Below, piece by piece: positions 2,393 through 29,585 of a stretch of 64,000 nucleotides of DNA. The stretch is from Patescibacteria group bacterium (GTDB taxonomy: Bacteria > Patescibacteriota > Patescibacteriia > JAXHNJ01). The notes under the pieces were generated by a model that was not told where the DNA came from, searched no databases, and was given only the letters and a program-made list of their open reading frames with translations. Within the stretch, counting starts at the first letter, position 1. Every line of letters begins with the position of its first letter. Where the stretch lies: NCBI GenBank assembly GCA_041649715.1, contig JBAZMP010000002.1, positions 4,964-68,963 of the forward strand, given 5' to 3'. The position numbers and the translations under genes were made by a program.

Positions 2393-2409
2393 GGGGGCTT
2401 TAATATTAA

Positions 2410-13882: not shown

Positions 13883-13891
13883 ATTTATCGG

Positions 13892-14776
13892 TTAGTAGAT
13901 ATTATTGGTCAGCAAGTCGGCGCCAAGCAAAAGGGCGTTGTCTTCAAGGTCTGATTTTACAATTTTTATGGTTTTATGTCGAGCGTATATCACTTCCTGG
14001 CCGAAGTCCTTTTTGGCGAGCGCAATAATTTTTTCAAAACGTGAAACGCCGCCGCCCAAGATGAATATATCCGGGCTTAGAGTATTGGCCAAGCTGGCCA
14101 GGGCTTGGGCTAAATAGCGGGCCATAACTTCGGCGGCCGCCAAAGCATTTTTATCACCTCTTAAGGCGAGATGGTTGATTTCTTCGCCTTTGAGGGTCTG
14201 ACCGGTTATTCTCCGGTAGTACTTAGATAAGGCCGGGCCGCAGACCTGTGATTCAAAGTGCCCGTAGTGTCCGCAGCTGCACCGAAAGCCTCCCTCTCTG
14301 ATTTGAAAATGGCCCATCTCCATCAGATTTTGCCGGCCGCGGTACAGCTTTTTATCAACGACAAAGCCGCCGCCGATGCCGGTGCCGATAGTAACGCCAA
14401 TGATGTATTGATATTTTTTACCCGCCCCCAGGATGCTTTCTGAAAGAGTGAAACACAAGCCGTCGTGTTCTACGAAGACCGGTTTTTTATACCAGCTTTC
14501 CAAGATTTTTTTCAAATTCACGCCCCGGATATAAGCAGGAAAATTAGTCGCTTCCAAGACCACCCCGTTATTGACCGGACCGGCAAAAGAAAGACCGATC
14601 GCCCTGGCCTTTTGCGGCTGATAATTCGTGATAGATTTTTTGATATTGGCCAGAAGGCGTTTTAAGCCCTTCTTTTTCTCGGTGAGAATTTTATGATGGG
14701 AAATGACGCGGTTGTTTTTCACTAACCCCGTGTTTATTTTTGTCCCGCCAATGTCACAACAAATGGTATAGGCCAT
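13892..14776 (-). CDS. ROK-family sugar kinase (glucokinase-like).
   Basis: N-terminal DIGGTK ATP-binding motif and the ROK zinc motif CSCGHYGHFE. Confidence 0.75.
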   Translation of the reverse strand: MAYTICCDIGGTKINTGLVKNNRVISHHKILTEKKKGLKRLLANIKKSITNYQPQKARAIGLSFAGPVNNGVVLEATNFPAYIRGVNLKKILESWYKKPVFVEHDGLCFTLSESILGAGKKYQYIIGVTIGTGIGGGFVVDKKLYRGRQNLMEMGHFQIREGGFRCSCGHYGHFESQVCGPALSKYYRRITGQTLKGEEINHLALRGDKNALAAAEVMARYLAQALASLANTLSPDIFILGGGVSRFEKIIALAKKDFGQEVIYARHKTIKIVKSDLEDNALLLGADLLTNNIY

Positions 14777-14839
14777 ATATTATGTATTTCCTATTATACC
14801 AGAAATATAGTATAATTTCAATTGGTAAGCTTTGAATAT

Positions 14840-16027
14840 ATGACCAAAGATCCCGAAAAAATCAGCGATTTATTGGCTCGCGGCGTTTCTGAGATTATTG
14901 ATAAAAAGAATGTGGAAAAAAAGTTGGCCTCGGGCAAAAAACTGCGGGTGAAACTCGGCATTGACCCGACCGGTTATGATCTGCATATCGGTCATGCCGC
15001 CCCCCTGCTTAAGCTTAAAGCCTTTCAGGGTCTGGGCCACCAGGTCGTTTTGATTATCGGCGATTATACCGCCCGCATCGGCGATCCTTCCGGCCTGGAT
15101 AAAACCCGGCCGCAACTTACGGAAAACGAGACGGAGAAATTCGGCGAAGAATATTTCAAGCAGGCTTGCCTTATTTTGGATAAAAATAAAACCGAAGTCC
15201 GCTGGCAGAGCGAATGGTTTGAGGAATTTGACCTGCAGACAATCATTAATTTAACCAGCAAGGCGACTCTCGCCCAGATTTTGGCGCATGAAACCTTTAG
15301 TAAGCGTTTGAAAAAAGGCCTGCCTTTGTCCACGCATGAAATTCTTTATCCCTTTTTGCAGGGTTATGATTCAGTGGCCGTCAAAGCGGACATTGAGCTG
15401 GGCGCGGTGGAGCAGAAGTTTAATTTACTGATGGGCCGGACCATTCAGGCCGCTTTTAATCAGCCTTCCCAGGATATTATGACTTTAAATTATGTTATGG
15501 GGACGGACGGCCGGAAAATGGGCAAGACCTTTAATAATTACATTGCCATAAAAGACCCGGCCAATGAAATGTTCGGCAAAGTGATGTCCATTCCCGATGA
15601 TTTGATTATACCCTATTTTGAATTGGCGACCGAAGTGCCGTTAACAAAAATCAAGGAAATTAAAATCGCTCTAGCCAAAGGCGATAATCCGCGGGACCAT
15701 AAAGCCCGGTTAGCGCGGGAGATTGTCGCTTTGTATCATGGGATTAAGGGAGCCGATGAGGCGGAAAAAGAATTCAACAAAGTCTTTAAAGACAAGAATT
15801 TGCCGAGCGATATTCTGGCCTTGAAATTGAAAAAGAGCAAGCTAAAGATAGCCGATTTATTAGTAATGGCGAAATTGGTTTCAAGCAAGGCCGAGGCAAG
15901 ACGATTGATTGAACAAGGCGGTTTTTCCTTGAATAACAAAAAAATAACGGAATGGCAGAAGGAAGCCACTTTTAACCCTGGTGACATTATTAGGGCCGGC
16001 AAAAGGAAGTTTTTAAAAATAGAATAA
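14840..16027 (+). CDS. tyrS: Tyrosyl-tRNA synthetase.
   Basis: HIGH motif (DLHIGHAAP), KMSKS motif (KMGKT), LQGYD, and a C-terminal S4 domain. The track ORF begins at TTG 14822; the ATG at 14840 is preferred. Confidence 0.85.
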   Translation: MTKDPEKISDLLARGVSEIIDKKNVEKKLASGKKLRVKLGIDPTGYDLHIGHAAPLLKLKAFQGLGHQVVLIIGDYTARIGDPSGLDKTRPQLTENETEKFGEEYFKQACLILDKNKTEVRWQSEWFEEFDLQTIINLTSKATLAQILAHETFSKRLKKGLPLSTHEILYPFLQGYDSVAVKADIELGAVEQKFNLLMGRTIQAAFNQPSQDIMTLNYVMGTDGRKMGKTFNNYIAIKDPANEMFGKVMSIPDDLIIPYFELATEVPLTKIKEIKIALAKGDNPRDHKARLAREIVALYHGIKGADEAEKEFNKVFKDKNLPSDILALKLKKSKLKIADLLVMAKLVSSKAEARRLIEQGGFSLNNKKITEWQKEATFNPGDIIRAGKRKFLKIE

Positions 16028-16034
16028 AAATACC

Positions 16035-16070
16035 AAAAAACGACCTCATTTATAAGAAGTCGTTTTTTTT
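16035..16070. terminator. Bidirectional rho-independent terminator between tyrS and the convergent 16094..17053 gene.
   Basis: 10-bp stem AAAAAACGAC / GTCGTTTTTT (16035-16044 / 16059-16068). Confidence 0.6.
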
Positions 16071-16093
16071 GTATCTATTTAATGTGTCTGAAG

Positions 16094-17053
16094 CTAAAAA
16101 ATTGCGACCTGCAGATAGGAATCGGTGGCGGCGCCGGTATTGGCCACATAACACTTAACCCTTAGAGTTTTGCCTGAAATATCGCTTGCGACATCGGCGT
16201 AGCCCACGCAGTTAGTGTTGCTGGCGGAGGCAACCGGCGTGATTTGGAAGAACCTTTCGTCGTAGACATCCAGATTGCTGAAAGTAAAGCTGTAATCGCC
16301 CACTCCATTTTTTACGGACACTGCCGGATCGCCAAAACTAGACATATAGATGTTCGCCGGATCATACCAAAAAGCGGCATGGACCGTGCCGTCACCCGTA
16401 TAATCCCACTGGACAACATCGCCTGAAAAATATGCGCCATCAGCGTAGATAAAATTCGTATAGATACTGTCGTTGGCCGATAAGCCGTCGACGGTAAGGT
16501 TGGTGTCAGTGTCAAAATCATCGCCGGTTATTGAACCATTCTTGATATCCGAGGAAGTAATCGTTTCGCTGGCGATCTTGGCGCTAGTCACCGCATTGTT
16601 TGCCAGGTCAGTAGTCGCCACCGCTCCAGCGCTTATCTTTGCGCTGGTGATGGCGTTATCGGCCATATCATCCGCAGTGATGGTTTCATCCTTGATATTG
16701 GCCGAAGTGACCACGTCGCGGCTGTCAATCGAAGCAACGGTCAGGGAGCCGGCTACTTCCAGATTGTCGTTGATAATGAAAGGCATCGTGTCGCTTGTCC
16801 CTGGGGTGGCGCCCCGGTAAATCCGCCCGTCGATCCTCACGTTGTCGCCGAAGGCGACGGGATTATCAGCGCCGGAAGTGGTGGTGCTGTTGACAATCGT
16901 GCCGTTGAAAAAAGTGACGCCGCCCACCCCCTGCAATCCGACCTCGAGTGAATTAACTTGGAGCGAGTCGTTTATAACCTGGGTCGCCTGGGCTATCTGC
17001 GCCGAAACAAAAACAACCAGGGCTAAGCCCAGGAAGATCGCGAGACTTCTCAT
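16094..17053 (-). CDS. Secreted protein with tandem ~11-aa repeats (beta-helix/fibre-like).
   Basis: Signal peptide MRSLAIFLGLALVVFVSAQIAQA. Repeats of the ITADDMADNA / ITSAKISAGAV / TSAKIASETI type. Confidence 0.5.
   Translation of the reverse strand: MRSLAIFLGLALVVFVSAQIAQATQVINDSLQVNSLEVGLQGVGGVTFFNGTIVNSTTTSGADNPVAFGDNVRIDGRIYRGATPGTSDTMPFIINDNLEVAGSLTVASIDSRDVVTSANIKDETITADDMADNAITSAKISAGAVATTDLANNAVTSAKIASETITSSDIKNGSITGDDFDTDTNLTVDGLSANDSIYTNFIYADGAYFSGDVVQWDYTGDGTVHAAFWYDPANIYMSSFGDPAVSVKNGVGDYSFTFSNLDVYDERFFQITPVASASNTNCVGYADVASDISGKTLRVKCYVANTGAATDSYLQVAIF
16500..16740. repeat. About seven tandem 33-nt repeats inside 16094..17053.
   Basis: Repeated units such as GATCTTGGCGCTAGTCACCGCATTGTTTGCCAG and TATCTTTGCGCTGGTGATGGCGTTATCGGCCAT. 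Confidence 0.5.
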
Positions 17054-17104
17054 ATTGTTTCCTTTCGATTAATTAATAATATAACCAATATAATAAATCT
17101 TTCA

Positions 17105-17428
17105 TTATAAAAATCGCCAGATTAAATGGCCGAATTCATAATATAAATATAATAGAGTTGTTATAACATAAATAATAATTGTACAAATTTTAATAGCTCT
17201 TGAATTATTGCGATTATGGAAAAACTTAAAGAGAAATAATATAGTAGTTAGCACTATTAAGGAAGGAATAAATAAAATTACACAGAGTAAAAAGGCGTAT
17301 GCATTACCCTCACTTGGTTCTTTATCAAAAAACATAGCAAATAAAGCCATTGAGGCGGTTCCTACGACCATAATAATGCTTGGTAGGCAGGCAACAGCTA
17401 GCAGGGCATAATATGTTTTTTTGCTCAT
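17105..17428 (-). CDS. Small hypothetical membrane protein; the gene is AT-rich.
   Basis: 107 aa with three hydrophobic segments. Confidence 0.3.
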   Translation of the reverse strand: MSKKTYYALLAVACLPSIIMVVGTASMALFAMFFDKEPSEGNAYAFLLCVILFIPSLIVLTTILFLFKFFHNRNNSRAIKICTIIIYVITTLLYLYYEFGHLIWRFL

Positions 17429-17434
17429 ATGTTT

Positions 17435-18370
17435 TTATTTTTCCCGGTAAAACTTGGCGGCGATTTCCGGGGAAACGGAATTAACGATCAGGCGTGAGCC
17501 AAGCTCTATGCCGGCCCAGACATTGCGGCGGGGCGAGATCCGCAGATAAAAATGCTCGTGCGGGTAGCGGATAGCCTGATGCAGGTAGTAATTATAGGGC
17601 AGATTGAACCGGCGGAGCTTTTCCAAGATGTTTTTCAAAATTTTGGCCAGGGATTTTAATTCATTTTTGTTGAGCAGGGAAATATTGTCAATATGCCTTT
17701 TGGGGAAAATCCAGGCCTCATAATTGTAGTTGGAGGCCCAGGGCGTAAAACAGGAGATATATTCGTCTTCCCAGACAAAGCGGGGCGATTTCTTCTCTTG
17801 TTTAATCAAGTCGCAGTAATAGCAGGAGCCCATCTGGATCTTGTATTCTTCTGCCCGGGTCAGGCGGTGCAAGATATGGGGCGGCAGAAAGGAGGTGGCC
17901 AGGATCTGGGAGTGGGCGTGGGTCAGGGAGGCGCCGGCCCGGCCGCCGTTGTTTTTAAAAATCAGCAAATACTGGAACCTTTTATTTTTACTGATGGAGG
18001 CTGTCCTTTTTTGGTAGGTCTCCAAAATCTTCTCAAAATGGTTTAGGGGCAGTTCGGACATCTCAAGTTTATGTTCCGGTGTCTCAACGATTACTTCTTG
18101 CACGCCGTAGGCCTTGGGATTATCCTCGGTGAAGACGGGAAAAACGTTTTTTATGACCTTGATCAGCCATTTTTTTTCCGGGCCGACGGTCAAGATGGTC
18201 TTGACGTTTCGCAGTTTTTCCGGACAAAACGGGCAGGCGCTTTGAGGGATGGATTTTCCTTCGCCCTCCTGTTCAAAATGATGAGGTCTTTTTTCCCGGC
18301 CGGGGGCGATGATCACCGCCCGGTCATTGATGTAGTCTTGCCTGATCTCTGACTGTGTTTTTTTGTCCAT
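17435..18370 (-). CDS. Galactose-1-phosphate uridylyltransferase (GalT)-family nucleotidyltransferase; may act as an NDP-sugar phosphorylase.
   Basis: Zinc-binding CPFCPE motif and the HIT-like active site HAHSQILA (HxHxQ). Confidence 0.65.
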   Translation of the reverse strand: MDKKTQSEIRQDYINDRAVIIAPGREKRPHHFEQEGEGKSIPQSACPFCPEKLRNVKTILTVGPEKKWLIKVIKNVFPVFTEDNPKAYGVQEVIVETPEHKLEMSELPLNHFEKILETYQKRTASISKNKRFQYLLIFKNNGGRAGASLTHAHSQILATSFLPPHILHRLTRAEEYKIQMGSCYYCDLIKQEKKSPRFVWEDEYISCFTPWASNYNYEAWIFPKRHIDNISLLNKNELKSLAKILKNILEKLRRFNLPYNYYLHQAIRYPHEHFYLRISPRRNVWAGIELGSRLIVNSVSPEIAAKFYREK

Positions 18371-18376
18371 ATTTAT

Positions 18377-19963
18377 TTAGTGATACAGCTTTTTATAAAG
18401 TTTTAGGTATTCCTGGCCGGAGCGGTCCCAGGAAAAATTTTGGTTCATCGCATTTTTTACCAATTTCCGCCAGGCCCTTTTATTTTGATATATTTTCAAG
18501 GATTTTTCAATAGCGGCCAGCAATTCTTTGGCGTCGAAGTTTTTGAAAAGGAAACCGGTGCCCCGGCCAGATTTGGGGTTGAATTCTTCCACAGTGTCTT
18601 TTAGCCCGCCGGTTTTCCGGACGACAGGAATGGTGCCATAGCGCATGGCGATCAGCTGGCCCAGGCCGCAGGGCTCGAAGCGTGAAGGCATTAAAAACAG
18701 GTCCGAACCGGCATAGATCTTTTGGGCCAATGAGGCGTCAAATCCGATCTTGGTAAAAACGTTCTTAGGGAAATCGGCGGCCATTTTCTGGGCGATTTCC
18801 TCGTATTTTGACAAGCCTGACCCCAAAATAACAAGCTGGATGTTTCTTTTCACCAAGTCGGGCAAAACAGGGATTAATAGATCAAGGCCTTTTTGGTCGG
18901 CGAGCCGGCCGACGACGCCGAGAACCGGGATGTTCTCGTCAATGGCCAGTCCGGTAATTTTTTGCAAATCTTTTTTATCTTCTATTTTGCCAGACGGGTT
19001 TACTGCGGAGTAGTTTTTTGCTAAGTTCGGATCGGTCTTCGGGTTGAATATTTCCGTGTCAATGCCGTTGACAATGCCGCTTAAATCGTTTTTTCTGGCC
19101 AGCAGATATTTTTCCAGCCCTTCGCCGTAAGCCGGGGTCAAAATTTCTTTCGCGTAGGTCGGACTGACGGTGTTAAGCAGGTCAGCATAGGCGATCGCTT
19201 GTTGCAGATAGTCGATAGTAACGGAGTCATATTTTTTTAATTTCTCTTCCAGGTTTTTGTCGCCTTTCAGATTCAGATATTTTGTCGCCTCGTCATAGCT
19301 ATATTTGCCTAAAAAGGAATAATCAATCGTGACGGGATTATTCTTATCGTGTTTCATTACCGGACCTTCCGCTTTTTTCAGGTTCAAATAGGCGGTCGCT
19401 TCGTCATAGTTATATTTGCCCTGATAAGCGATATTGTGGATGGTCAGAAGAATCTTCATTTTCGGAAACAGTTTGTCTTTTTTTGCCCTTTCTTTCAGTA
19501 AAAACGGCACGATACCGACGTGCCAGTCGTGACAATGGATAATATCCGGCCAAAAATTCAACGGAGAAAAAATCTCCTGGATGCAGCGGGCAAAAAAAGT
19601 GAATCTTTGGCATTCTCGGGAGGCGCCACCCGAAGAAGCGTCTTTTTCAAAATAGACGCCGCCTGCCCCCAGATATTTCAGGTGATCAATGAGATAGACG
19701 ATTACATCGGAGCCAGGCAGGAGGCTGGCGAAAATCCTGATTTTTTCTTTCTGGCCGTTAAAAGGCACTTCGATGTTGTCCGCCACCAGTTTAAGGGGGT
19801 ATTTTTTTTCGTCGATAATGCCGTATTTAGGGATTACGATTCTTGAATCCGCCCCCTTTTTCCGCAGGCTTTTCGGCAAGGCGCCGATAACATCGGCCAG
19901 TCCGCCCACTTTAGCCAGGGGGGTTAGCTCAGCGGCGACAAATAAAACCTTTGTTTTGGCCAT
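18377..19963 (-). CDS. glgA: Glycogen/starch synthase (GT5, GlgA-like) carrying an internal duplicated insertion.
   Basis: N-terminal KVLFVAAELTPLAKVGGLADV with an HNIAYQG motif. Two copies of KY(N/S)YDEAT(A/K)YLNLK…VTIDY. Confidence 0.85.
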   Translation of the reverse strand: MAKTKVLFVAAELTPLAKVGGLADVIGALPKSLRKKGADSRIVIPKYGIIDEKKYPLKLVADNIEVPFNGQKEKIRIFASLLPGSDVIVYLIDHLKYLGAGGVYFEKDASSGGASRECQRFTFFARCIQEIFSPLNFWPDIIHCHDWHVGIVPFLLKERAKKDKLFPKMKILLTIHNIAYQGKYNYDEATAYLNLKKAEGPVMKHDKNNPVTIDYSFLGKYSYDEATKYLNLKGDKNLEEKLKKYDSVTIDYLQQAIAYADLLNTVSPTYAKEILTPAYGEGLEKYLLARKNDLSGIVNGIDTEIFNPKTDPNLAKNYSAVNPSGKIEDKKDLQKITGLAIDENIPVLGVVGRLADQKGLDLLIPVLPDLVKRNIQLVILGSGLSKYEEIAQKMAADFPKNVFTKIGFDASLAQKIYAGSDLFLMPSRFEPCGLGQLIAMRYGTIPVVRKTGGLKDTVEEFNPKSGRGTGFLFKNFDAKELLAAIEKSLKIYQNKRAWRKLVKNAMNQNFSWDRSGQEYLKLYKKLYH

Positions 19964-19966
19964 ATA

Positions 19967-21988
19967 TTATTCCAAATTTTCCTGGATTATCTTTTTTAGG
20001 ATGATTAAATAGCGCGCCCGATTTTTATCTTTTGGGCCCATCAGCATCGTACTGATCGTCCAGATATCCAAGGCTGAACGGACCTTAAAGAGAGAAAGGT
20101 TTTTTTTCACCTCCTTGGCGATCTTCAGCCCGGCTTTTTTATAATACGTTTCTAGAAATATGTTTTGCAATGTTTTTATCCTTTTTTCGACCAGGAGGCG
20201 GTCAAGCATGATCCGCAAATGAATGAGGAAATTAGCGACATCAAAAGCGGGATAAAAAAGGCAGGAAAGGGTATAGTCAATCACGGCAACCTCATTGGCG
20301 GGCGTGATGATAATATTGGAAGCCTGGAAATCATTATGTGAAAGGACGAGTTTCGCCCCCTTGAGATCGGCTTTGGCCAATTTTAAATATTGATCGCGCC
20401 ATTTCTTGATCATCGGATAGTCTGGCGCGTCATATTTTTTTATTTTGGTCCTTAAATCCTGGAAAAAGTTCGGTTCGTCGTATCTTCTTTTATTGACGGC
20501 TGGCCAGGGCAGACGATGAAGCCTGGCAAGAGTAGCGGCGATTTTTTGGACGATGTTTGAAAAATTACGGCTCTTAAAATTCCACTCGCGCAGACGGGTT
20601 CCCGGCGTCTCCTCATAAAAAACATAGGGAACGTTGCGGAAAAAGAATAGCGGCCGGGGCGAGACCAAGCCCGGCTGGTTATGCTCATAAACATGTTTTA
20701 GGATAATGTATGTTTGGTGGGAAATAATGTTGCCGCGCAGGTAATAATCCACTTTTTCATTTTTGAAGGTGGCCACCGTTATTTTTGTGCGGGTTAAAAA
20801 ACTTGTTTCTGACAGGGCGTCCGGTTGATCAATGGTCAGATCAATAATATGCTTGGCTGCCGGGAAAAAACGGCGGAGATTTTTATTATAAAACTTCATC
20901 ATCACTTCCTTATTGGAGAAGACTTCTTTCAGATTCTTCTTTTTTTGCCACGGGGAGATATTCTCTCCGGTGTTAACGTTAAGTTCCCGGCAGATTTCCC
21001 GGGCTTTTCTAAGGGCCCGTAAGATTGTTTCATCCGCCTCGGGGCTTTGGGAGACGGAAACGGTATAAGCGATGATCTGCATAATCCACCAAAGCTCATG
21101 GAGCTGAAATCTGGCTTTTATTTCTTTAAATTTGATATTTCTGGCGCCCAAATAGGCGTCGATAAAGGTTTTTTTGACGCTGACGGCAGTGTTTGAGTCA
21201 AAACCCCCTCGCCACATAATGAGATTTGTCTGGGCGATTAAATTGGCCAGATCGCTGACGGGGTCAAAAATGACGCTTCGCCCCCAATCAATTACCCCGA
21301 TACTGTTTTTATTGATGATAATATTGTGCGGATTAAAGTCGCCGTGGGTGAGGCAGAATTGATCTTTTTTCGCGTAGACCAATTCTTCAAAAAGAGGGAA
21401 TGAATTTTCCAAAATAGTGGTGCCGGCGGCGTATATTCCCGGATAATAGTTCTTGTAATCTTCCTTGAAATAGCCGATCTCATTTTTGATTAGGCCCAAG
21501 GAACGGATCTTGCCCTGCTTAATCTTCAATTCGTGGAAACGGGCCAGCCACAAAGCCGCCTGCTTGGTCAGGTAAAGCAGGTCTTTCGGCTTTTTGCGGA
21601 TATATTTTGAGAAGGTGACGCCGGGATATTCTTCGTAGAGGACCAGATTGATCTTAGGATAGTATCCCAAGGAAAGCGGAACGTGAAAGGGGGTGAAGGC
21701 AAAGCCCTTACGGTAGAGGATTTTTTGGCTTAAATCCGCGATTTTTATTTCATCTTGACTGTCTCGCGAAGGGACATTGCCCCGGAATATTTTTTTGTCT
21801 GTCTTGCCGGCCGGCGTCTTAAAAGTCAGCTCGTACTTGAGGGATTTCTTGAACTCAAATTCGCTGATATCGAAAATTTCGATGTTTTTTAAGCGGCTAC
21901 CGGGCGGAAAAAAATCCTTGACGATTTTTTCAAAAAACGCCCGCATGTATTTTTTGTTTTTGACCTTTAGGAAAAACTCCGCCGGCAT
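19967..21988 (-). CDS. Tandem two-domain kinase of the aminoglycoside-phosphotransferase/choline-kinase fold; possibly a sugar kinase of the maltokinase type.
   Basis: Two catalytic-loop motifs: LTHGDFNPHNIII…IDWG and LSHNDFQASNIII…IDY. Confidence 0.45.
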   Translation of the reverse strand: MPAEFFLKVKNKKYMRAFFEKIVKDFFPPGSRLKNIEIFDISEFEFKKSLKYELTFKTPAGKTDKKIFRGNVPSRDSQDEIKIADLSQKILYRKGFAFTPFHVPLSLGYYPKINLVLYEEYPGVTFSKYIRKKPKDLLYLTKQAALWLARFHELKIKQGKIRSLGLIKNEIGYFKEDYKNYYPGIYAAGTTILENSFPLFEELVYAKKDQFCLTHGDFNPHNIIINKNSIGVIDWGRSVIFDPVSDLANLIAQTNLIMWRGGFDSNTAVSVKKTFIDAYLGARNIKFKEIKARFQLHELWWIMQIIAYTVSVSQSPEADETILRALRKAREICRELNVNTGENISPWQKKKNLKEVFSNKEVMMKFYNKNLRRFFPAAKHIIDLTIDQPDALSETSFLTRTKITVATFKNEKVDYYLRGNIISHQTYIILKHVYEHNQPGLVSPRPLFFFRNVPYVFYEETPGTRLREWNFKSRNFSNIVQKIAATLARLHRLPWPAVNKRRYDEPNFFQDLRTKIKKYDAPDYPMIKKWRDQYLKLAKADLKGAKLVLSHNDFQASNIIITPANEVAVIDYTLSCLFYPAFDVANFLIHLRIMLDRLLVEKRIKTLQNIFLETYYKKAGLKIAKEVKKNLSLFKVRSALDIWTISTMLMGPKDKNRARYLIILKKIIQENLE

Positions 21989-23349
21989 TATTTTTTTTCC
22001 TTTTGATAGCTTTTGATTTCCGCGATGCGGTTGCGCAAGTGGGCTGCCCTTTCGTATTCTTCTCCTTTCACCATGATTTTTATTTCCTGGCGAAGGTTAT
22101 TGATAATTTTGTCGATTTCCTTTTTCGGCAGTTCGGGGATCGCCTCATCGCTTCTTTGACGCACTTCCTCGTCTTCCTGGCGGCTTAAGGCCTCAACCGT
22201 GCCGTTACGCTGCCATTCGAAACCCGTAAATACAATGTCCTGGTAGAGTTTTTGCGCCCGATCTTTCAAAGCGGCAGGCGCCCCGGCTAAAAGCTGAATG
22301 GTTTCCTTCAATTCTTTGGCGCCGGCCTCGATCATTTCTAGGCTCCACCAGGGTTTGGCCGAGGCCCACCAAAATTGATCGGAATGCACCGCCCGGTCAA
22401 GCAGCATTCGGGCTTTTTGGTAGTTCGGATCGCGGCCAAATTGGCTGATCGCCTTTACGGCCAGGTGAAAGAGTTCCCATTGTTTTTCGTGGATCAAATT
22501 GCCCGGGTCATCCCAGCGGGAGAAAGGGGCGTTTTTTTCTAGATCTTTTTCCATTAGCGCCCAGGTGGAAGAAGCGGGGGTGATAGCTATTTCATCCTTA
22601 AAATATTTCGGAAGCTCTGAGATTAGGACGGTTTTTAATTTTTTTGACTTGTACATTTCAAAAAGGAGATGTTCCATACCCGGCCGATGGTGGCCAAAGG
22701 TTTCGCCGTCCATGGCAGTCAGTAAATACTCGTGCTTTTTCAGCCTTTCGCCTAAGGAGTCGATAAGAAGGGTGCCGGTTCCGAGCTGTCCGGACAGGAT
22801 CTTGTAGCTCATTTTTCTCTCCCGGAAGTATATTTTGAAATTCGGGGTGCCCTTGACGGTGTAAATTTTACTGTAATCAACGCGGCCCTGTTCCTTGGGA
22901 AAGGAAAGTTCGTCGACGATAATCCATTGGTAGCCTAAGCCGGCCACGATCTTGGCCACTTCGGGAGAAAAACCCATCTCCGGCGGAAAAAAGCCTTTCG
23001 GCTGGAAGGCTTCGCCAAAATATTTTTTATGGGCTTCGTGGTTTAGCTTCACTTGCCGGATGACCTCCTCTTTCGGTAATTTTGGCAGCAGCGGGTGGTA
23101 TTTGGCGCTGGCCGTCAGCTCGATCTGTCCTCTTTTTAGAAGCATTCTTATGTCATCAATGAGGTCTTGGCAGCCGTTTTGTTCGAATAATTCCACTAAA
23201 ATCGCGCTGACGTTCAAAGTGAGCTTGGCTTCAGGCGCTCTTTTTAGCTCGGCGACAATCCGGCGGTAAGACTCATCGGCGATTTTTTTTACCCAATAAG
23301 GTTTTTGGGTGGGGGGTTGGTAAATGTGTAAGAAATTGGCCCAATACAT
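21988..23349 (-). CDS. GH57-family alpha-glucan enzyme (branching enzyme / 4-alpha-glucanotransferase-like) with a C-terminal UVR-like motif.
   Basis: N-terminal FLHIYQP and a GH57 core. C-terminal EEYERAAHLRNRIAEIK resembles the UvrB/UvrC UVR motif. Confidence 0.65.
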   Translation of the reverse strand: MYWANFLHIYQPPTQKPYWVKKIADESYRRIVAELKRAPEAKLTLNVSAILVELFEQNGCQDLIDDIRMLLKRGQIELTASAKYHPLLPKLPKEEVIRQVKLNHEAHKKYFGEAFQPKGFFPPEMGFSPEVAKIVAGLGYQWIIVDELSFPKEQGRVDYSKIYTVKGTPNFKIYFRERKMSYKILSGQLGTGTLLIDSLGERLKKHEYLLTAMDGETFGHHRPGMEHLLFEMYKSKKLKTVLISELPKYFKDEIAITPASSTWALMEKDLEKNAPFSRWDDPGNLIHEKQWELFHLAVKAISQFGRDPNYQKARMLLDRAVHSDQFWWASAKPWWSLEMIEAGAKELKETIQLLAGAPAALKDRAQKLYQDIVFTGFEWQRNGTVEALSRQEDEEVRQRSDEAIPELPKKEIDKIINNLRQEIKIMVKGEEYERAAHLRNRIAEIKSYQKEKK

Positions 23350-23387
23350 AGGTTATTCTTAATTAGTTGATAAGTTTATAATTTATA

Positions 23388-24623
23388 CTATTCGGTAATC
23401 TTCTTGCCGCCCATTTCCGGGACAAAACCGACCTTATGCATGTATTCTTCGGCCTTGGCTTTGGCCTGGCCGGAAGCCTGCCACTCGCGGACCAAACCGG
23501 CTAATTCTTCAAGCATTTTCTGGGTTTCGTTTACCTCGGCGATGGAAATGCTTTTCAGAGGTTCTAAAACCCGGACTAGTTCTTCCGCCTCGCGGATGAT
23601 AATTTCCTGGCTCCACCAAGGCCGCATCGAAGCCCACCAGAATTGATCGGAAGCCAAGGATTTATCCAGAAGTTCTTGGGCGTAAGATAGATTCTCGTCT
23701 TTATTATTCTTCGCTTTTTCCATCAGTCCCAGGATTTTTTCCACTAGGGCCCATTGTCTGACATGAATAGGGTTTTTGGGGTTTTGCCACAGTATGTAAG
23801 GGGTTTTTTCAGAAAAATCTTCTTCTTCGGAAGACCAGCTGGCGGGGGCAAGGTCGACGGCCTCGAATTTATCGTAGTTTTTCAATAGCGCCGAGCAGGT
23901 GTCGGTGGTCACCTCCGACCGGGTAATCAGATTTTCCCAGAGTTTTTCCGTATTTTTCCGGTGGTGACCCAAGTTTTCTCCGTCCATGCCGGTTATCAAA
24001 AAATCCTTGCAGCGGCCATCTTCTTTGATTTTGTGGCAAAATTCATCCGGTTTTTCAAACAAAGCCTCAAAAGCGAAAAAGTTGCTGATGGTGCGGTTGC
24101 GGAAAATAACTTTTATGGAAGTATTCTTTATTTGATATCCCTGCTGGCAATTTACTCGGCCGATTTTTTTATTATAAGAAATTTCATCCAGAATAACCCA
24201 TTTTATTTTTAATTTTTCCAAGACCGGGACAAGATTATTACCCCAGGCCATCTCTGGGACGTAAAACCCTCGAGGTTTGTAGGCCGAGCCGAGATATCTG
24301 CGGTTCGCCTCTTCATTAAGACGGATCTGGCGGTAGATTATTTCCGCCGAGAAAAGAGGCAGGATAAGATGATATTTGGCGCTGTGAGTAAATTCTATTT
24401 GGCCGTTTTTGGCCAGCTTAATCAGATCTTCGATGATACCCAGGTAGCCGTATTTTGCCAGCTGTTCGGTCAAACTGGCGCTGATGTTTAGGGTTATTTT
24501 TACCGAGGGATTTCTTTTCAATATATCGAGCAAGGGGCCATAGCATTCGCGGGTTACTTTCCGGATAGTGGCCTCTTCCCAGTCCGGCGGCTGGTAAATA
24601 TGGAAAAAATTGATCCAGATCAT
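23388..24623 (-). CDS. Second GH57-family protein, a paralog of 21988..23349.
   Basis: N-terminal FFHIYQPP with collinear GH57 motifs. Confidence 0.65.
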   Translation of the reverse strand: MIWINFFHIYQPPDWEEATIRKVTRECYGPLLDILKRNPSVKITLNISASLTEQLAKYGYLGIIEDLIKLAKNGQIEFTHSAKYHLILPLFSAEIIYRQIRLNEEANRRYLGSAYKPRGFYVPEMAWGNNLVPVLEKLKIKWVILDEISYNKKIGRVNCQQGYQIKNTSIKVIFRNRTISNFFAFEALFEKPDEFCHKIKEDGRCKDFLITGMDGENLGHHRKNTEKLWENLITRSEVTTDTCSALLKNYDKFEAVDLAPASWSSEEEDFSEKTPYILWQNPKNPIHVRQWALVEKILGLMEKAKNNKDENLSYAQELLDKSLASDQFWWASMRPWWSQEIIIREAEELVRVLEPLKSISIAEVNETQKMLEELAGLVREWQASGQAKAKAEEYMHKVGFVPEMGGKKITE

Positions 24624-24627
24624 AAAT

Positions 24628-26097
24628 TTAGCTTGTTTTTTTCTCGCGGAGTTTTTTAATCGCCAAATAGTAGAGAGCGAGGTATTTTTTTGCGGGGATC
24701 TCCCAAGAATAAGAAAGGCGCATGGCCTGCCAGGTGAGATGTTCCCAGGTTTTTCGGTATTTGTAATTGACCAGGGCCCGGATGATGGCCGCCAAAAAAT
24801 CTTCTTTTATAAAACGGGAAAAGACGAAACCGTTGCCTCTTTCTTTGCGGGGGTCAAAGTCGGTGATGGTGTCGGACAGCCCTCCGGTTTCATGGACAAT
24901 CGGGATGGAGCCGTAACGCAGACTGATCATCTGGGAGATGCCGCAGGGTTCATAGCGTGAGGGCATCAGGAACATGTCTGAGCCGGCATAAACCCGCGCC
25001 GCCATTTTATCAGTGAAAGGGGAAGAGATGGCGATTTTCCGGGGGAATTTGCGGTTCAGCTTGCGGAAGGAATTGATATATTCTTTTTGCCCCGAACCAA
25101 CGACAATGAATTGAATGTCCATTTTCAGAAGAAAATCCATAAGGCGGAGAATTAGATCAAACCCTTTTTGTTCGGTCAGGCGGTGCACCAGACCAATCAG
25201 AGGGATGTCCGGGTCTACTTTTAGCTTCATCTCTTTCTGTAGGAGAAGCTTGTTCTTTTTCTTTTTGTCCAAAGAATTCCAGTCGTATTTATGCCGGATA
25301 TAGGGGTCAAAAAGGGGATTATACACATTATAATCTATCCCGTTGATGATGCCGAAGACATCCTTTTTCCGGGCCCGTAATATCCGATGCAAACCTTGGC
25401 CGAATTCCGGGGTCATTATTTCCTTGGCGTATCTTTCACTAACCGTGTTGATTATGTCGGCGTTTAACAAGGCTCTTTTCGTAAAATTTATATTTTTTAT
25501 TTCACCCTCCTTTTTTACGGGCGGAAGGTGATGGCCGTCATCGACCAGTTTTTTGGGAATTGTCCACCAATTCTGCTGGAACTGAAAAGGAAGGTTGTGG
25601 ATGGTAAAAAGAGTCGCTATCTTTGAATAGCCGATCTCCGCGCGGAATTTTTTCGCCAGATAGTTGGGAATTAGCCCGGCGTGCCAGTCCTGACAGTGGA
25701 TAACGTCAATTTTAAGTTTGAACTTCTCGATCATTTTTAAAACCGCCAGGTCAAAAAACAAGAATCTTAAGTTATCATCGGCGTAGTTATATAATCTTGA
25801 GCGATTGAACAGTTGCCAATTATAAATAAAATAGATGGGAATTTCGGGGGTAAAAAAAGTGCGCCGGTATTTGATATGATAATTGTTTTTATTAATAGTG
25901 ATATTGTCCTCGCCGATTTCTTCGATCTTTAAATTCTGGTTGCGGATAAAGCCGTAGTATGGCATGACCACGATCACTTTTTGTCCGAGGTGGACCAAGG
26001 CTTTTGGTAGGGCGTTGCAGACGTCAGCCAGACCGCCGGTGCGGGCATAAGGGGCGATTTCGGCCGTGGCCATTAAGATGGTGAGCGGTTTATTCAT
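24628..26097 (-). CDS. glgA: Glycogen/starch synthase, second copy.
   Basis: N-terminal TILMATAEIAPYARTGGLADV, an HNLPFQ motif, and a C-terminal GT-B fold domain. Confidence 0.85.
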   Translation of the reverse strand: MNKPLTILMATAEIAPYARTGGLADVCNALPKALVHLGQKVIVVMPYYGFIRNQNLKIEEIGEDNITINKNNYHIKYRRTFFTPEIPIYFIYNWQLFNRSRLYNYADDNLRFLFFDLAVLKMIEKFKLKIDVIHCQDWHAGLIPNYLAKKFRAEIGYSKIATLFTIHNLPFQFQQNWWTIPKKLVDDGHHLPPVKKEGEIKNINFTKRALLNADIINTVSERYAKEIMTPEFGQGLHRILRARKKDVFGIINGIDYNVYNPLFDPYIRHKYDWNSLDKKKKNKLLLQKEMKLKVDPDIPLIGLVHRLTEQKGFDLILRLMDFLLKMDIQFIVVGSGQKEYINSFRKLNRKFPRKIAISSPFTDKMAARVYAGSDMFLMPSRYEPCGISQMISLRYGSIPIVHETGGLSDTITDFDPRKERGNGFVFSRFIKEDFLAAIIRALVNYKYRKTWEHLTWQAMRLSYSWEIPAKKYLALYYLAIKKLREKKTS

Positions 26098-26103
26098 AAT
26101 TAT

Positions 26104-27183
26104 TTATTTAATAATACCCAAATAGCGACTGGCGATGACAAACATGGCGTGGCTCCAGGCCAAGGGATTGATGCTTTTTCGGAAATCCGGAAAAATCTGC
26201 TCGGGGATATAATTTTCCACTCTATCCAGTACCCAGGTGTAATAGGCGAGAGCCTTTTTTTTGTTGCCGGCCAGCACCCAATAAATCGCCAGCCAAAAGT
26301 TCAAAATCGGCCAGGCGCCGCCGCCTTCCCAGGCGGTACCTTCTGAGTCGAAATAATCAAATTGAAAACGATGAACGCCGCCCCCAACCACCAAATTCTC
26401 TTCGATTTTCTGGACGGTATTTTTTATTTTCTTGTCGTCCGGCTCAATGATTTCGAAAGGGTAAACAAGGCCCAGGAGCGAAGCATCAATATTTTTGTCG
26501 GAAATTTTTCCCGCGTTACGATAAAAATATTCATCGGATAGACTGTAGGCTTCTTCTATCTCGCGGATCATCTGCCGGGCGACCGCCTCCCAGGCTTTAT
26601 TGGGCAGAATCTGGTGAGCGCAGAGCAGTCCTCTGGCGCAGGCGGCCAGGGAATAGGTAAAATTATTTTCCATGACCGAAGAAGTTTTTCGGTAACCGTC
26701 TTCCCAGAGATCAAGGGTATTGGGCAAAAAATATTTTTTGTTCCAGGCCGCGCAAAGCCCTTCGGCCAGCCATTTGATCAGGTCTTTGTATTTTAAGGCT
26801 TTTTTTAAATCCGTCTTAAAATTAGAATAGACCATCCATAAAACGGTGCCCATTTGGTCGGGCTCGAATTGGGCGCCCATGGAAGCGACGCGCCCGTTCG
26901 TCGAATAATTGGCGTAAAGCAATTTATCCTTTTTGAAATCCTCGGGTTTGGTGAAAAGCCAATCCAGGAATTTTTCTTGTATTTCAATATTTAGATGTTT
27001 GGCCGCGACACAGACAAAAGAGGCGTCGCGCGGCCAAACATAACGGTAATTGGCCGCTTGGCGCGGATAATAGGTTTTATCCGTGTTGGCAGCCACGATC
27101 GCGCCGTTTTCCAGGGCGCAATCATTGAAAACCCTTGCGGAGCTTTCAATCAGTTGGCTGATTTTTTTCTTATCTAGGGGCAT
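26104..27183 (-). CDS. GH15-family (glucoamylase/glucodextranase-like) catalytic (alpha/alpha)6-barrel protein.
   Basis: YVWPRDAS resembles the YTWTRDS glucoamylase signature. About 359 aa. Confidence 0.6.
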   Translation of the reverse strand: MPLDKKKISQLIESSARVFNDCALENGAIVAANTDKTYYPRQAANYRYVWPRDASFVCVAAKHLNIEIQEKFLDWLFTKPEDFKKDKLLYANYSTNGRVASMGAQFEPDQMGTVLWMVYSNFKTDLKKALKYKDLIKWLAEGLCAAWNKKYFLPNTLDLWEDGYRKTSSVMENNFTYSLAACARGLLCAHQILPNKAWEAVARQMIREIEEAYSLSDEYFYRNAGKISDKNIDASLLGLVYPFEIIEPDDKKIKNTVQKIEENLVVGGGVHRFQFDYFDSEGTAWEGGGAWPILNFWLAIYWVLAGNKKKALAYYTWVLDRVENYIPEQIFPDFRKSINPLAWSHAMFVIASRYLGIIK

Positions 27184-27192
27184 AAAAAATAA

Positions 27193-27669
27193 TCAGGTGT
27201 AAGATTTTTTTTGCATACAGCAATAGGCGATGGCCAGAGCGTCAGCCGCGTCATCAGGCGTGGGCACGGCCTTTAAATTGAAAATTGCCTTTAGCATTTT
27301 TTGCATCTGGCCCTTGTCGGCTTTACCGTAGCCGGTGGTCGTTTGCTTGACTTGCAGGGGCGTAAATTCCAACAAAGGGATTTTTTCTTCCGCCGCCGCG
27401 AGACAAACCACGCCCCGCGCCTGGCTGACCAAAAGGGCGGTTTTGGTGTTTTGGCCGAAGAATAGCGATTCCACTCCGATTCTTTCCGGCTTATATTTTT
27501 TAATGATTTTTTTTAGCTCTCTGGAAATTTTTTCCAGCCTTTTTTCCAAGGGGGTTTTGGTTTCCGTGGTCAGGCAGCCGTAGACAATATTCAAAGTTTT
27601 TAATCCATCGGTTTTAAGAATGGCGTAGCCGGTCCGGGCCAGCCCCGGGTCAATGCCTAGAATAATCAT
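27193..27669 (-). CDS. ruvC: Holliday junction resolvase RuvC.
   Basis: N-terminal IILGIDPGLARTGYAIL and a size of 158 aa. Confidence 0.85.
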   Translation of the reverse strand: MIILGIDPGLARTGYAILKTDGLKTLNIVYGCLTTETKTPLEKRLEKISRELKKIIKKYKPERIGVESLFFGQNTKTALLVSQARGVVCLAAAEEKIPLLEFTPLQVKQTTTGYGKADKGQMQKMLKAIFNLKAVPTPDDAADALAIAYCCMQKKSYT

Positions 27670-27671
27670 AG

Positions 27672-28385
27672 TTATGCGATATTAGTATAAACCTGATTCA
27701 CGTCCTCCTGCTCCTCAAGACTTTCAATCAGATTTTGTATTGATTGCCATTTTTTTTCCGATTCAATCTCCACCTTGTTTTTCGCCACCAACTGGATTTC
27801 CGCGGCCGTGATCTTATATTTTTCCGCGAGCTTGTTTTTCACGCTCTGGCAGTCTTCTTTATTTGTGATGACGGTTATTTCGTTTTCGTCCGCCTGAATG
27901 TCTTCGGCTCCGGCGTCAATGGCGACCAACTCTATTTCGTCCTTGCTTTTGCTTTCCGGATCGACGATGATAACGCCCTTTTCTTCAAAGAGCCACCTTA
28001 CGGAATTCGCCTCGCCTAGGCGGCCGTTATTTTTCGCCAGAATGTTCTTTATTTCGCTCGTTGTCCGGTTGCGATTATCGGATAGAGCTTCCACTAAAAG
28101 GGCGATGCCACCCGGTCCATAGGCCTCATACATGATTGATTCCAGCTGGCTGCTTCCTTCTCCGGTGGCTTTTTTGACCGCCCGCTCAATATTGTCCTGG
28201 GGCATGTTGGCGGCTCGGGCCTTTTCTATGGCCAATCTTAATTTAAAATTGGCCGCCGGGTCTGCCCCGCCTTCTTTAGCGGCAATGGTCACGGCGCGGA
28301 TCAGTTTAGAAAATATTTTGCCTTTCTTCTCATCAGAAGCGCCCTTTTGCCTTTTTATCTGTCTCCATTTGGAGTGGCCGGACAT
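27672..28385 (-). CDS. yebC: YebC/PmpR-family DNA-binding regulator.
   Basis: N-terminal MSGHSKWRQIKRQKG…FSKLIRAVTIAAKEGGADP. Confidence 0.85.
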   Translation of the reverse strand: MSGHSKWRQIKRQKGASDEKKGKIFSKLIRAVTIAAKEGGADPAANFKLRLAIEKARAANMPQDNIERAVKKATGEGSSQLESIMYEAYGPGGIALLVEALSDNRNRTTSEIKNILAKNNGRLGEANSVRWLFEEKGVIIVDPESKSKDEIELVAIDAGAEDIQADENEITVITNKEDCQSVKNKLAEKYKITAAEIQLVAKNKVEIESEKKWQSIQNLIESLEEQEDVNQVYTNIA

Positions 28386-28520
28386 TTTTTACCATTAAAA
28401 AAATAAGGTTAGAGTGCTTATAATATAACATTTTTTACGTTTCAAGTCAAAGTAAAACTTCAGCAGCATTTGCTTAATTTGCGGTCCTTTGCTAGAGTGA
28501 ATTCAGATATAATAAAAAAT

Positions 28521-29585
28521 ATGAAAAAGTTGGAAAACAAAAATATTTTTCAAAAATACGACTCCGGAAAAGTTTTGTCTTCCTTAGAGCAGCTGCCTAA
28601 ACAATGCCGCCAAGCGCAGAAAGAAACAAAAAATTTAAAATTTCCGGCTGAATACCGCCGGGTCAGAAACATCCTTGTTTGCGGCATGGGCGGTTCGGGT
28701 TTGGGCAGCGACCTGATCCGAAATGTCTTTGCGAGCCGTTTAAGAGTGCCTCTTAATATCAATGCGGATTATGACTTGCCCGATTACGTGGATAAGGATA
28801 GTCTGGTCGTTGCTTCCAGCTATTCCGGCAATACCGAAGAAACATTGGTTGCCTGCCGCGCCGCTTTGAAGCGGGGGTCTAAACTTTTAGTTATTTCCGC
28901 CGGCGGAAAATTAGCGGGTTTTGCCCGGCACCGTCGTCTGCCGGCCTATATTTTTACGCCTAATTTTAATCCTTCTGGCCAGCCCCGTCTGGGTCTCGGT
29001 TACTCGGTCATCAGCCAAACGGAGATTTTTAGAAAACTGAATATATTAAGAATATCGGAAAAAGAAATAGAGTCAGCCATCGGTTTTTTGGAGTCGTCAA
29101 TCAATGATTTTTCAATAGCGGCCAGAAATAATCCCGCTAAACAGATCGCTTACCGTTTTTTCAGAAAAGTCCCGGTTATTTTTTCCGGCAATTCTCTTTT
29201 GGGCAGCGCTCATGTCTTGGCCAATCAGATCAATGAAAATGCCAAGAATTACGTCAGTTTTTACGCCTTGCCCGAATTAAATCACCATCTTTTGGAAGGT
29301 TTGACCCATCCAACGGTTTTGCGCCAATTTACTTTTTTGCTTCTGGAATCAAACCTCGATTCGCCCGCGGTAAAAAAGCGTTTTTCGGTCACCAGGAAAA
29401 TACTGGCAAAGAAGAAACTGGAAGCGACTACGCTTGTGGCCAAGGGCCGCGACCGCTTTAGCCAGGCTTTATGGCTGATGCTTTTCGGCGGCTTTGCCAG
29501 TTTTTACCTGGCGATGTTAAATCAGGAAAATCCCTCCTTGATCCCCTGGGTGGATTTCTTAAAAAGGGAATTAGCCAAAAAATAA
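28521..29585 (+). CDS. SIS-domain bifunctional phosphoglucose/phosphomannose isomerase (archaeal-type PGI/PMI).
   Basis: Sugar-isomerase domain GMGGSGLGSDL and a size of about 355 aa. The start was chosen at ATG 28521 (MKKLENK); the track ORF uses TTG at 28470. TATAAT sits at 28508-28513. Confidence 0.65.
   Translation: MKKLENKNIFQKYDSGKVLSSLEQLPKQCRQAQKETKNLKFPAEYRRVRNILVCGMGGSGLGSDLIRNVFASRLRVPLNINADYDLPDYVDKDSLVVASSYSGNTEETLVACRAALKRGSKLLVISAGGKLAGFARHRRLPAYIFTPNFNPSGQPRLGLGYSVISQTEIFRKLNILRISEKEIESAIGFLESSINDFSIAARNNPAKQIAYRFFRKVPVIFSGNSLLGSAHVLANQINENAKNYVSFYALPELNHHLLEGLTHPTVLRQFTFLLLESNLDSPAVKKRFSVTRKILAKKKLEATTLVAKGRDRFSQALWLMLFGGFASFYLAMLNQENPSLIPWVDFLKRELAKK

Follow-up and report, generated by a model that had tools for sequence, protein, structure and literature searches.

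The tandem kinase gene and its domains

A gene for a double kinase of the aminoglycoside phosphotransferase (APH) fold lies within an alpha-glucan gene cluster of a Patescibacteria group bacterium (assembly GCA_041649715.1, contig JBAZMP010000002.1, positions 4,964 to 68,963), a stretch of 64,000 nucleotides that is called the window hereafter and to which the coordinates refer. The gene (19967..21988, minus strand, as are all the genes of the cluster) is an ATG-to-stop open reading frame (ORF) of 673 amino acids (aa), in which a first domain (D1), a linker and a second domain (D2) follow each other. It belongs to a co-directional run, in the order YebC, RuvC, GH15, GlgA_up, GH57a, GH57b, kinase, GlgA_dn and GalT-like, with junctions of –1 to 9 nt plus one 38-nt gap. 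As the preliminary description of this DNA had it, the kinase gene stands between glgA (18377-19963) and two GH57 genes (21988-23349 and 23388-24623). The stop codon of GH57b and the start codon of the kinase overlap by 1 nt (TAATG), and from this arrangement the two genes are predicted to be translationally coupled. Promoter and terminator scans of the window gave nothing better than shuffled sequence.

The Pfam APH model (PF01636) matches the whole 673-aa protein in two stretches (E=2.4e-28). When the protein was cut at residue 340, residues 1-340 scored 48.9 bits and residues 341-673 scored 54.2 bits on this model, each half thus passing the gathering score of 23.2 bits on its own, so that the earlier view of the protein as two complete APH/choline-kinase-like domains stands. 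On the Pfam Choline_kinase model (PF01633, cut-off 29) D2 reaches 54.2 bits, the same as its APH score, and D1 stays under the cut-off with 21.5 bits; the genes around it speak against a role in choline metabolism. The complete kinase domain D1 (residues 1-340, 20969..21988), supported by its own Pfam APH match, a D1-specific hidden Markov model (HMM) and its clade, contains the catalytic loop HGDFNPHN (residues 215-222, with H215, D217 and N222; 21323..21346) and the metal-binding segment IDW (residues 233-235, with D234; 21284..21292). The corresponding elements of D2 (residues 356-673, 19970..20923), which passes both the Pfam APH and Choline_kinase models alone, are HNDFQASN (residues 551-558, with H551, D553 and N558; 20315..20338) and IDY (residues 570-572, with D571; 20273..20281). 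All four motifs had already been noticed in the preliminary description and lie where it placed them; the loops of both domains and both metal-binding segments are invariant across 19 fused homologs. No sequence of the ingroup, whether split, single or fused, departs from the full pattern H-x-D-x4-N...D, which both halves of 17/17 fused representatives retain intact. In addition, each domain carries an RGN motif in strand 3, namely R69-G-N71 in D1 (21776..21784), which is followed by an invariant E80 in the next helix, and the invariant R418-G-N420 in D2 (20729..20737). In D1, this motif probably makes the nucleotide-phosphate contact in place of the usual Lys. Going by these residues, which are those of small-molecule kinases, the active sites of both D1 and D2 are predicted to be intact.

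D1 and D2 align from end to end with 23% identity (E=1e-13) and are paralogs; since the alignment covers their whole length, the protein arose via internal duplication or paralog fusion. An AlphaFold2 model built from a 19-sequence alignment has a mean predicted local distance difference test score (pLDDT) of 90.3 and a predicted template modelling score (pTM) of 0.81, and its sole low-confidence stretch is the inter-domain linker (residues 341-355, 20924..20968). An earlier model from a 9-sequence alignment had a pTM of 0.52 and was uninformative on domain packing. The later model presents a bilobal kinase fold with the helical C-lobe of the APH/choline-kinase type and, because of its pTM, it reads as a defined packing of D1 against D2, that is, as a predicted covalently linked heterodimer of paralogous kinases.

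A conserved slot coupled to GH57

The position of the kinase was compared in 22 loci from species-representative genomes (loci are designated by L and a number), which were picked via the D2 motif and annotated with the window proteins. About 20 distinct loci from Patescibacteria, Kerfeldbacteria and Parcubacteria share the same block in the same order, GH15-GlgA-GH57-GH57(UVR)-KINASE-GlgA-GalT-like, down to 29-32% identity, and have PGI on one side of the block and TyrRS, ROK and PBP1 on the other. The kinase slot is filled by a fused D1-D2 gene in the window and in L001, L003-L007 and L009, by separate, neighbouring genes for D1 and D2 in L011 and L012, by a single D2-type gene in L010 and L013-L022, and by a single D1-type gene in L033 and L036. 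The association with glucan genes reaches further, to basal single kinases (L030, L032), to distant double-APH proteins (L029, L034) and to a triple-APH protein beside a 661-aa GH57 (L035). Synteny with glucan genes in relatives, which had been proposed as a check on the gene, is therefore strongly upheld. The glucan operon is located about 7 kb from dnaA/dnaN (window 7807-10720 and 11030-29585), and DnaA, DnaN, DciA, PBP1, ROK, TyrRS, the operon, RuvC, YebC and PGI are collinear in relatives down to 48% identity; the neighbourhood is an unusually stable origin-proximal block.

Within this block, GH57b (21988..23349) is the tightest partner of the kinase, which lies directly downstream of it in every locus having GH57b. 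A Pfam scan of long relatives exposed, in another branch, a fusion of a single kinase domain to an upstream GH57, and a dedicated search then yielded 24 distinct GH57-APH clusters of 725-756 aa (PF03065 plus PF01636), down to 36-38% identity to the query. These fusion proteins are encoded on contigs up to 901 kb, occupy the same operon frame, and in 25/25 sequences keep the GH57 nucleophile Glu, the acid/base Asp and the kinase catalytic motif. The fusions constitute a robust Rosetta-stone link, and therefore the kinase and GH57b share a pathway step or form a complex. In the window, GH57b retains its nucleophile E124 and acid/base D214, and its nearest solved relative is the 4-alpha-glucanotransferase of Thermococcus litoralis (7e-15); the second paralog, GH57a (23388..24623), likewise has intact catalytic residues, and both keep all five GH57 regions. 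Only GH57b ends in a helical UVR motif of the UvrB/UvrC type (22009..22113), which is conserved in GH57b orthologs and absent wherever nothing separates GH57 from the kinase or the two are fused. This tail may be a docking element for the kinase.

As regards the kinase itself, nine close homologs have the tandem architecture (670-677 aa, 32-100% identity). Word-indexed searches, with the single protein and then with its 9-sequence profile, recovered the same nine relatives only, and the wider family became visible only when all 1.84 billion cluster representatives (50% clustering) were searched exhaustively with a profile. This search gave 78 matches at E<=1e-30, of which about 16 are fused proteins (654-684 aa) and many of the remainder are single-domain proteins of about 340 aa that cover only the N-terminal or only the C-terminal half. 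The tandem architecture is not an assembly artefact, because the nine homologs and the approximately 16 further representatives share it. The D1 and D2 HMMs sort the single-domain proteins into D1 orthologs (e.g. 318 vs 92 bits), D2 orthologs (306 vs 86 bits) and undifferentiated basal forms, and the same three groups appear in a neighbour-joining tree, which was made without bootstrap and is indicative only. Members of the D1 and D2 clades can be recognised by the RGN motif in strand 3, which basal members do not have. D1-type genes also serve as the only kinase in this slot, which led to rejection of the idea that D2 came first and D1 was added later. A duplicated kinase had been considered unusual in the preliminary description; the tandem itself holds, yet the slot carries single, split, fused-double and triple APH proteins, and about 20 other multi-APH proteins are found among the best 150 relatives.

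Taken as a whole, the protein represents an undescribed, Patescibacteria-centred family of APH-fold kinases that is a fixed, GH57-coupled part of an alpha-glucan operon. The family is probably sugar-directed. Literature searches on the candidate phyla radiation (CPR), glycogen, GH57 and kinases turned up no account of this kinase or operon.

A separate observation concerns the labels of some of the loci compared. Six of them (L010, L011, L013, L018, L019 and L022), in records titled 'uncultured Gammaproteobacteria', have the full Patescibacteria-type order YebC-RuvC-GH15-GlgA-GH57-...-PBP1, and the Gammaproteobacteria label of these metagenome-assembled genomes is probably wrong.

Relation to characterised kinases and the other operon genes

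Plain phmmer of the whole protein against the PDB gave marginal matches only (E>=0.003), and clade-specific domain profiles were used instead. With these, the closest matches are the kinase domain of ACAD11 (1e-13) and choline kinases for D2, and APH(2'') and APH(3') for D1, which also has a weak match to the PknB-type catalytic-loop region (E about 1e-5). In Foldseek, 198 PDB chains were matched at E<=1e-3, and of the best 50 among these 198 almost every one belongs to the APH, choline-kinase or allied small-molecule kinases. Ahead of maltokinase (Mak) come ethanolamine kinase (E=2e-9), 25-hydroxysteroid kinase, APH(2''), choline kinases and methylthioribose (MTR) kinase. Among the curated NCBIfam models, the best match is CotS (TIGR02906), with 46.1 bits against a cut-off of 172.7; APH(3') reaches 44.6 of 205 bits, APH(2'')-Ia/If/Ih 27.6 of 475 bits and ThiK 26.6 of 299 bits, all short of their cut-offs.

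Maltokinase (Pep2/Mak) of the GlgE pathway had been put forward as a lead on account of its fold, and this lead did not hold. The Mak_N_cap family has no match at E<=1 with each half or at E<=0.01 with the whole protein; the 21 NCBIfam matches at E<=0.01 include neither maltokinase nor TreS-fused maltokinase models; Mak is not among the best 60 PDB matches of the D1 or D2 profile; and in Foldseek the Mycobacterium tuberculosis enzyme (4o7o_B) comes at rank 46 (TMt 0.40, root-mean-square deviation 14.3 Å, 10% identity). MTR kinase fares no better than generic APH-fold kinases (2pun_B, rank 43, TMt 0.58, 13% identity), and an MtnK model is likewise missing from the 21 NCBIfam matches at E<=0.01. 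Accordingly, of the families with which comparison had been suggested, Mak, MTR kinase and CotS, none is matched as a family, the scores being far under cut-off or the ranks generic. The preliminary description had also held that the maltokinase assignment would fail if the domains clustered with antibiotic or choline kinases, or if the gene were not syntenic with glucan genes: they do cluster in this way, generically and at 12-19% identity, and the synteny is conserved. Because the identity is so low, the kinship says little about the substrate. Its statement that no GlgE or TreS (GH13) gene is present is borne out among the approximately 50 window ORFs scanned, and no GlgE, TreS or other GH13 gene was found in about 30 related loci either (window plus about 10-kb flanks). 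The protein operates broadly as Mak does, as a kinase of related fold in glucan metabolism, and is not a member of the Mak family.

The remaining genes of the operon comprise two GT5 glycogen/starch synthases, GlgA_up (24628..26097) and GlgA_dn (18377..19963), a GH15 glucosidase consisting of the catalytic domain only, with isomaltose glucohydrolase as its nearest solved relative (26104..27183), and a GalT-like nucleotidyltransferase of the HIT family (17435..18370), in which the H-x-H-x-Q motif is intact (H151-A-H153-S-Q155). The GalT-like protein is much closer to Arabidopsis At5g18200 (PDB 1Z84/2H39; 1.7e-45) than to Escherichia coli GalT (6.5e-19). At5g18200 catalyses the reversible reaction ADP-Glc + Pi <-> Glc-1-P + ADP, and a recent preprint cites it as ADP-glucose phosphorylase. 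The GalT-like gene always comes after GlgA_dn, and reduced clusters retain GlgA_up beside the kinase; these pairings suggest that the operon consists of two modules, GlgA_up-GH57-kinase, in some loci followed by a PHP phosphoesterase, and GlgA_dn-GalT-like. No GlgC, PGM, GlgP or GH13/GlgE/TreS was found among the approximately 50 ORFs scanned in the 64-kb window, including every ORF of at least 250 aa. GalU, scoring above its curated cut-off, is encoded at 41981-42853, 22 kb from the GalT-like gene. The type of GalT together with the absence of GlgC, PGM, GlgP and GH13 from the window hints at a non-classical supply of ADP-glucose.

GlgA_dn measures 528 aa, against 481-490 aa for its orthologs in L001, L003 and L030, because of an in-frame tandem duplication of 37 residues (residues 182-218 and 219-255; window 19199-19420), which these orthologs do not have. 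Where the duplication begins, 13/15 residues are identical and the nucleotide identity is 82%. It stands out at the protein and codon level and was missed by Tandem Repeats Finder and by a DNA repeat search.

A gene for a PHP phosphoesterase directly follows the kinase in L014 (9997-10941), L017, L022 (1610-2524), L026 (12213-13106), L027, L028, L029 (10036-10902), L030 (8067-8942), L033 (8011-8892) and L036 (2814-3686). A PHP homolog was looked for and not found in the window, and it is absent too from all ten loci with both D1 and D2. The PHP proteins belong to the nucleotide-phosphoesterase/RNase AM branch and score far under curated cut-offs. In L034 (9048-9629) and L032 (2845-3435) the PHP slot is taken by a conserved protein about 195 aa long, 48% identical between these loci, which carries a Walker-A-like EGAELxGKS motif and whose likeness to thymidylate kinase is sub-threshold only.

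Several observations were made beside the operon or in its distant relatives. Between GalT-like and TyrRS (16094-17428), the window has two ORFs that are common to none of the related loci and have no family match, one for a hydrophobic protein of 107 aa (17105-17428) and one for a 319-aa protein with a hydrophobic, signal-peptide-like N-terminus and short ITSAKI-like repeats (16094-17053). The segment 31339-37804 encodes a DUF2079 membrane protein and a pair of GT87-like membrane glycosyltransferases, accompanied by two large ORFs without family match (29669-31297 and 34069-35730); this is a probable cell-envelope glycan module adjoining the glucan region. Just upstream of the double-APH glucan cluster of L029, positions 1-3745 contain split PEP-synthase-like genes with PPDK_N and PEP-utilizer phosphohistidine domains. 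Plant glucan-water dikinases use catalytic domains of these same types, although the proximity in L029 may be coincidental. Outside the CPR-type frame, L035 (767-12933) combines the 661-aa GH57 with the triple-APH protein (1054 aa), another APH and ABC, OEP, MFP and MacB-like exporter genes, and in a further protein (P0127) a double APH is joined to an ABC exporter. Together they suggest a related kinase-GH57 system tied to export. Finally, in a locus of the GH57-APH fusion lineage (L037, 10235-13892), two GT4 genes, a QueC-like ATP pyrophosphatase and a RimK-like ATP-grasp gene replace GlgA_dn, with GalT-like staying in place, and the product there may be a modified glucan.

Proposed function and comparison with known systems

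It is tentatively proposed, as the most economical reading and one that may well be wrong, that the protein phosphorylates, at the expense of ATP, glucose or malto-oligosaccharides with which GH57 deals, and that it would thereby feed the GalT-like protein, acting in the manner of an ADP-glucose phosphorylase, and GlgA. Each domain would transfer the ATP gamma-phosphate to a hydroxyl of a free sugar released or shuttled by GH57b and GH15, this sugar being glucose and/or maltose or a short malto-oligosaccharide, and analogy with Mak, NahK and MTR kinase would make this hydroxyl the anomeric C1-OH. Along one route, Glc-1-P and ADP would be converted to ADP-Glc and Pi by the GalT-like enzyme and GlgA would then use the ADP-Glc and return ADP; along another, the sugar-1-phosphate would itself be the glycosyl donor for GH57. 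The two domains would correspond to two substrate specificities or to two consecutive steps, and the net cost would be one ATP per stored glucose, without GlgC. The substrate, the phosphorylated position and the direction of metabolic flow are all inferred. The use of a sugar-1-phosphate is supported by GalU in the window, since this enzyme means that Glc-1-P is needed and no GlgC or PGM is present there. Some points weigh against the proposal. The kinase also occurs in clusters without GalT-like (L026-28, L033) or without GH57 (L033), and a PHP phosphoesterase after the kinase would be a futile partner for an enzyme that forms a sugar-1-phosphate, fitting better with a cycle of phosphorylation and dephosphorylation. 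Moreover, a ROK-family sugar kinase is conserved nearby, so that free glucose could already be handled, and the nearest solved relatives APH(2'') and APH(3') phosphorylate ring hydroxyls, not C1.

Some of these points would be accommodated if the substrate were the glucan itself, with the kinase phosphorylating ring hydroxyls (e.g. C6, C3, C2) of a GH57-bound alpha-glucan or oligosaccharide, PHP acting as the eraser where present, and the two domains serving two positions. Such a glucan or maltodextrin kinase, the chief and more novel alternative, is doubtful on balance. It would account for the retention of the kinase in clusters without a GalT-like gene and for the adjacency of kinase and PHP in the many branches listed above, and it agrees with the fusion or coupling of the kinase to a polymer-acting GH57 with intact catalytic residues and with the D1 profile, whose nearest neighbours APH(2'')/APH(3') act on sugar-ring hydroxyls of pseudo-oligosaccharides. 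However, the closest relatives of the PHP proteins are nucleotide phosphoesterases instead of any known phosphatase of sugars or glucans, and their scores lie far under curated cut-offs; their absence from the window and from all 10 D1-plus-D2 loci is left unexplained; Pfam scans detected no carbohydrate-binding module; and a dedicated bacterial glycogen kinase is not described in a 2024 review of prokaryotic alpha-glucan enzymes (PMC11046441). The division of labour between the domains might also be different, one being the enzyme and the other a regulatory or scaffolding partner that binds a nucleotide or effector or docks GH57b or GlgA. Many lineages manage with just one of the paralogs (D2 in L013-L022, D1 in L033 and L036), some D2-only genes nest among the C-terminal halves of fused proteins, which suggests that D1 can be lost, and D2 has no counterpart of the invariant helix-C glutamate E80 of D1. 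Pseudokinases usually lose at least one catalytic-loop or metal-binding residue, whereas here all of them are kept in both domains across 27-100% identity and the two halves diverge at similar rates, so this arrangement is considered unlikely.

A protein kinase that regulates glucan synthesis versus breakdown via GlgA, GH57 or another operon protein, with PHP as protein phosphatase, would find some backing in the kinase/phosphoesterase pairing, in the weak match of the D1 profile to a PknB-type catalytic loop and in the UVR protein-interaction tail of GH57b beside the kinase gene. It is nevertheless very unlikely, given that small-molecule kinases alone head the fold and profile matches, the C-lobe is of the helical APH/choline-kinase type, the PHP proteins resemble nucleotide phosphoesterases, and a stoichiometric fusion to GH57 with intact sites would be unusual for a regulatory kinase. 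A true Mak/Pep2 enzyme supplying the GlgE pathway with maltose-1-phosphate would share the fold class and the glucan context, and Mak is the sole APH-fold kinase known in prokaryotic alpha-glucan metabolism (PMC11046441); as family membership, this is largely refuted by the missing cap, model match and profile rank, by the Foldseek rank and by the lack of GlgE, TreS and GH13 in the window or any related locus, as well as by the metal ligand of the catalytic loop, which is Asn here and Gln310 in Mak (PMC11046441), and the identification is highly improbable. No more credit can be given to an unrelated resistance or housekeeping kinase (aminoglycoside, macrolide, choline or thiamine) lying in the cluster by chance: public annotations do read 'aminoglycoside phosphotransferase' or 'thiamine kinase-like', and APH(2'') and choline kinases are the most closely related proteins of solved structure, but throughout the phylum the slot keeps its place between GH57b and GlgA, the gene is translationally coupled in prediction, there are 25 GH57 fusions, and all curated resistance and ThiK models score far under their cut-offs.

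A bolder version, possible although on the whole rather less than likely, would make the kinase the core of a new kind of storage-glucan handling. This could take the form of a cycle of APH-fold glucan kinase and PHP eraser, which would be a bacterial counterpart, on a glycogen-like polymer and built from unrelated folds, of the plant GWD/PWD plus SEX4 cycle. Or it could be an ATP-driven polymerase of kinase and GH57 with no nucleotide sugar, GH57 taking sugar-1-phosphate as donor in what would be a GH57-based counterpart of Mak plus GlgE. Beside either form, GalT-like and GlgA would be a parallel, GlgC-free route to ADP-glucose.

The Patescibacteria (CPR) account for much of bacterial diversity, and their metabolism is minimal. 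In the examined loci they keep this glucan block, typically of seven genes, at a constant position near the replication origin, and surveys usually class their GH15 and GH57 genes simply as amylose degradation. A kinase obligatorily coupled to GH57 and GlgA lies outside both textbook bacterial routes, GlgC-GlgA and TreS-Mak-GlgE (PMC11046441). Depending on the substrate, it would stand for a cheaper, GlgC-independent ADP-glucose route, for a GH57 polymerase driven by sugar-1-phosphate or for the first bacterial glycogen kinase/phosphatase cycle. The family also displays steps in the evolution of kinase architecture side by side, from single proteins through paralogs and split pairs to the fused heterodimer and the fusion to a partner glycoside hydrolase. 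The proteins are small and soluble, which makes the question accessible to direct work in vitro.

Maltokinase (Mak/Pep2, EC 2.7.1.175) is among the closest known systems; the 2024 review lists no other kinase with this fold and makes no mention of Patescibacteria (PMC11046441). Both are ATP-dependent kinases of the APH/eukaryotic-like-kinase fold that serve, or here would serve, alpha-glucan synthesis, and Mak is often fused to the preceding glycoside hydrolase, as in the TreS-Pep2 fusion of the GlgE pathway (PMC11046441), one precedent for the GH57-APH fusions described here. The partners differ, however, being GH57, GT5 GlgA and GalT-like here and not GH13 TreS/GlgE, and the kinase of the present family is tandem or single and has no N-terminal cap. 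The proposed logic of kinase, GalT-like protein and GlgA, from sugar-1-phosphate to nucleotide sugar, is that of NahK, the N-acetylhexosamine 1-kinase, an APH-like C1 kinase which works with a GalT-family transferase in the bifidobacterial galacto-N-biose/lacto-N-biose (GNB/LNB) pathway; AmgK and MurU are a further pair of anomeric sugar kinase and nucleotidyltransferase. NahK is not among the best PDB or Foldseek matches, though, and the GalT-like protein is here of the class I/ADP-glucose-phosphorylase type, not class II; a glucan would be built, not amino sugars salvaged, and the tightest partner of the kinase is GH57, not GalT-like.

By profile and fold, the closest proteins are choline/ethanolamine kinases, APH(2'')/APH(3') and the N-terminal domain of ACAD10/11 (E 1e-13 to 1e-8; TMt 0.5-0.65), with which the kinase shares the Brenner-type H-x-D-x4-N loop, the metal-binding Asp and the helical C-lobe. 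By contrast, identity to them is 12-19%, the RGN motif is family-specific, and the context is exclusively that of glucans. The plant GWD/PWD and SEX4/LSF2 enzymes, with two kinase activities and a phosphatase on a storage glucan, are a functional analogy for the glucan-kinase alternative only: there is no homology, the plant enzymes being dikinases with a phosphohistidine domain and carbohydrate-binding modules, whereas here the transfer of the gamma-phosphate would be direct and PHP is not in the window. The glycogen cluster of Sulfolobus, glgA-amyA(GH57)-gaa(GH15)-glgX-glgC, has the same set of GT5 GlgA, GH57 and GH15, and in S. acidocaldarius the amyA product, which we take to be the GH57 enzyme, is required for glycogen synthesis and not for breakdown alone. 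In Sulfolobus the cluster contains GlgC and GlgX and lacks a kinase, while the Patescibacteria have the APH kinase, a second GlgA and the GalT-like protein instead.

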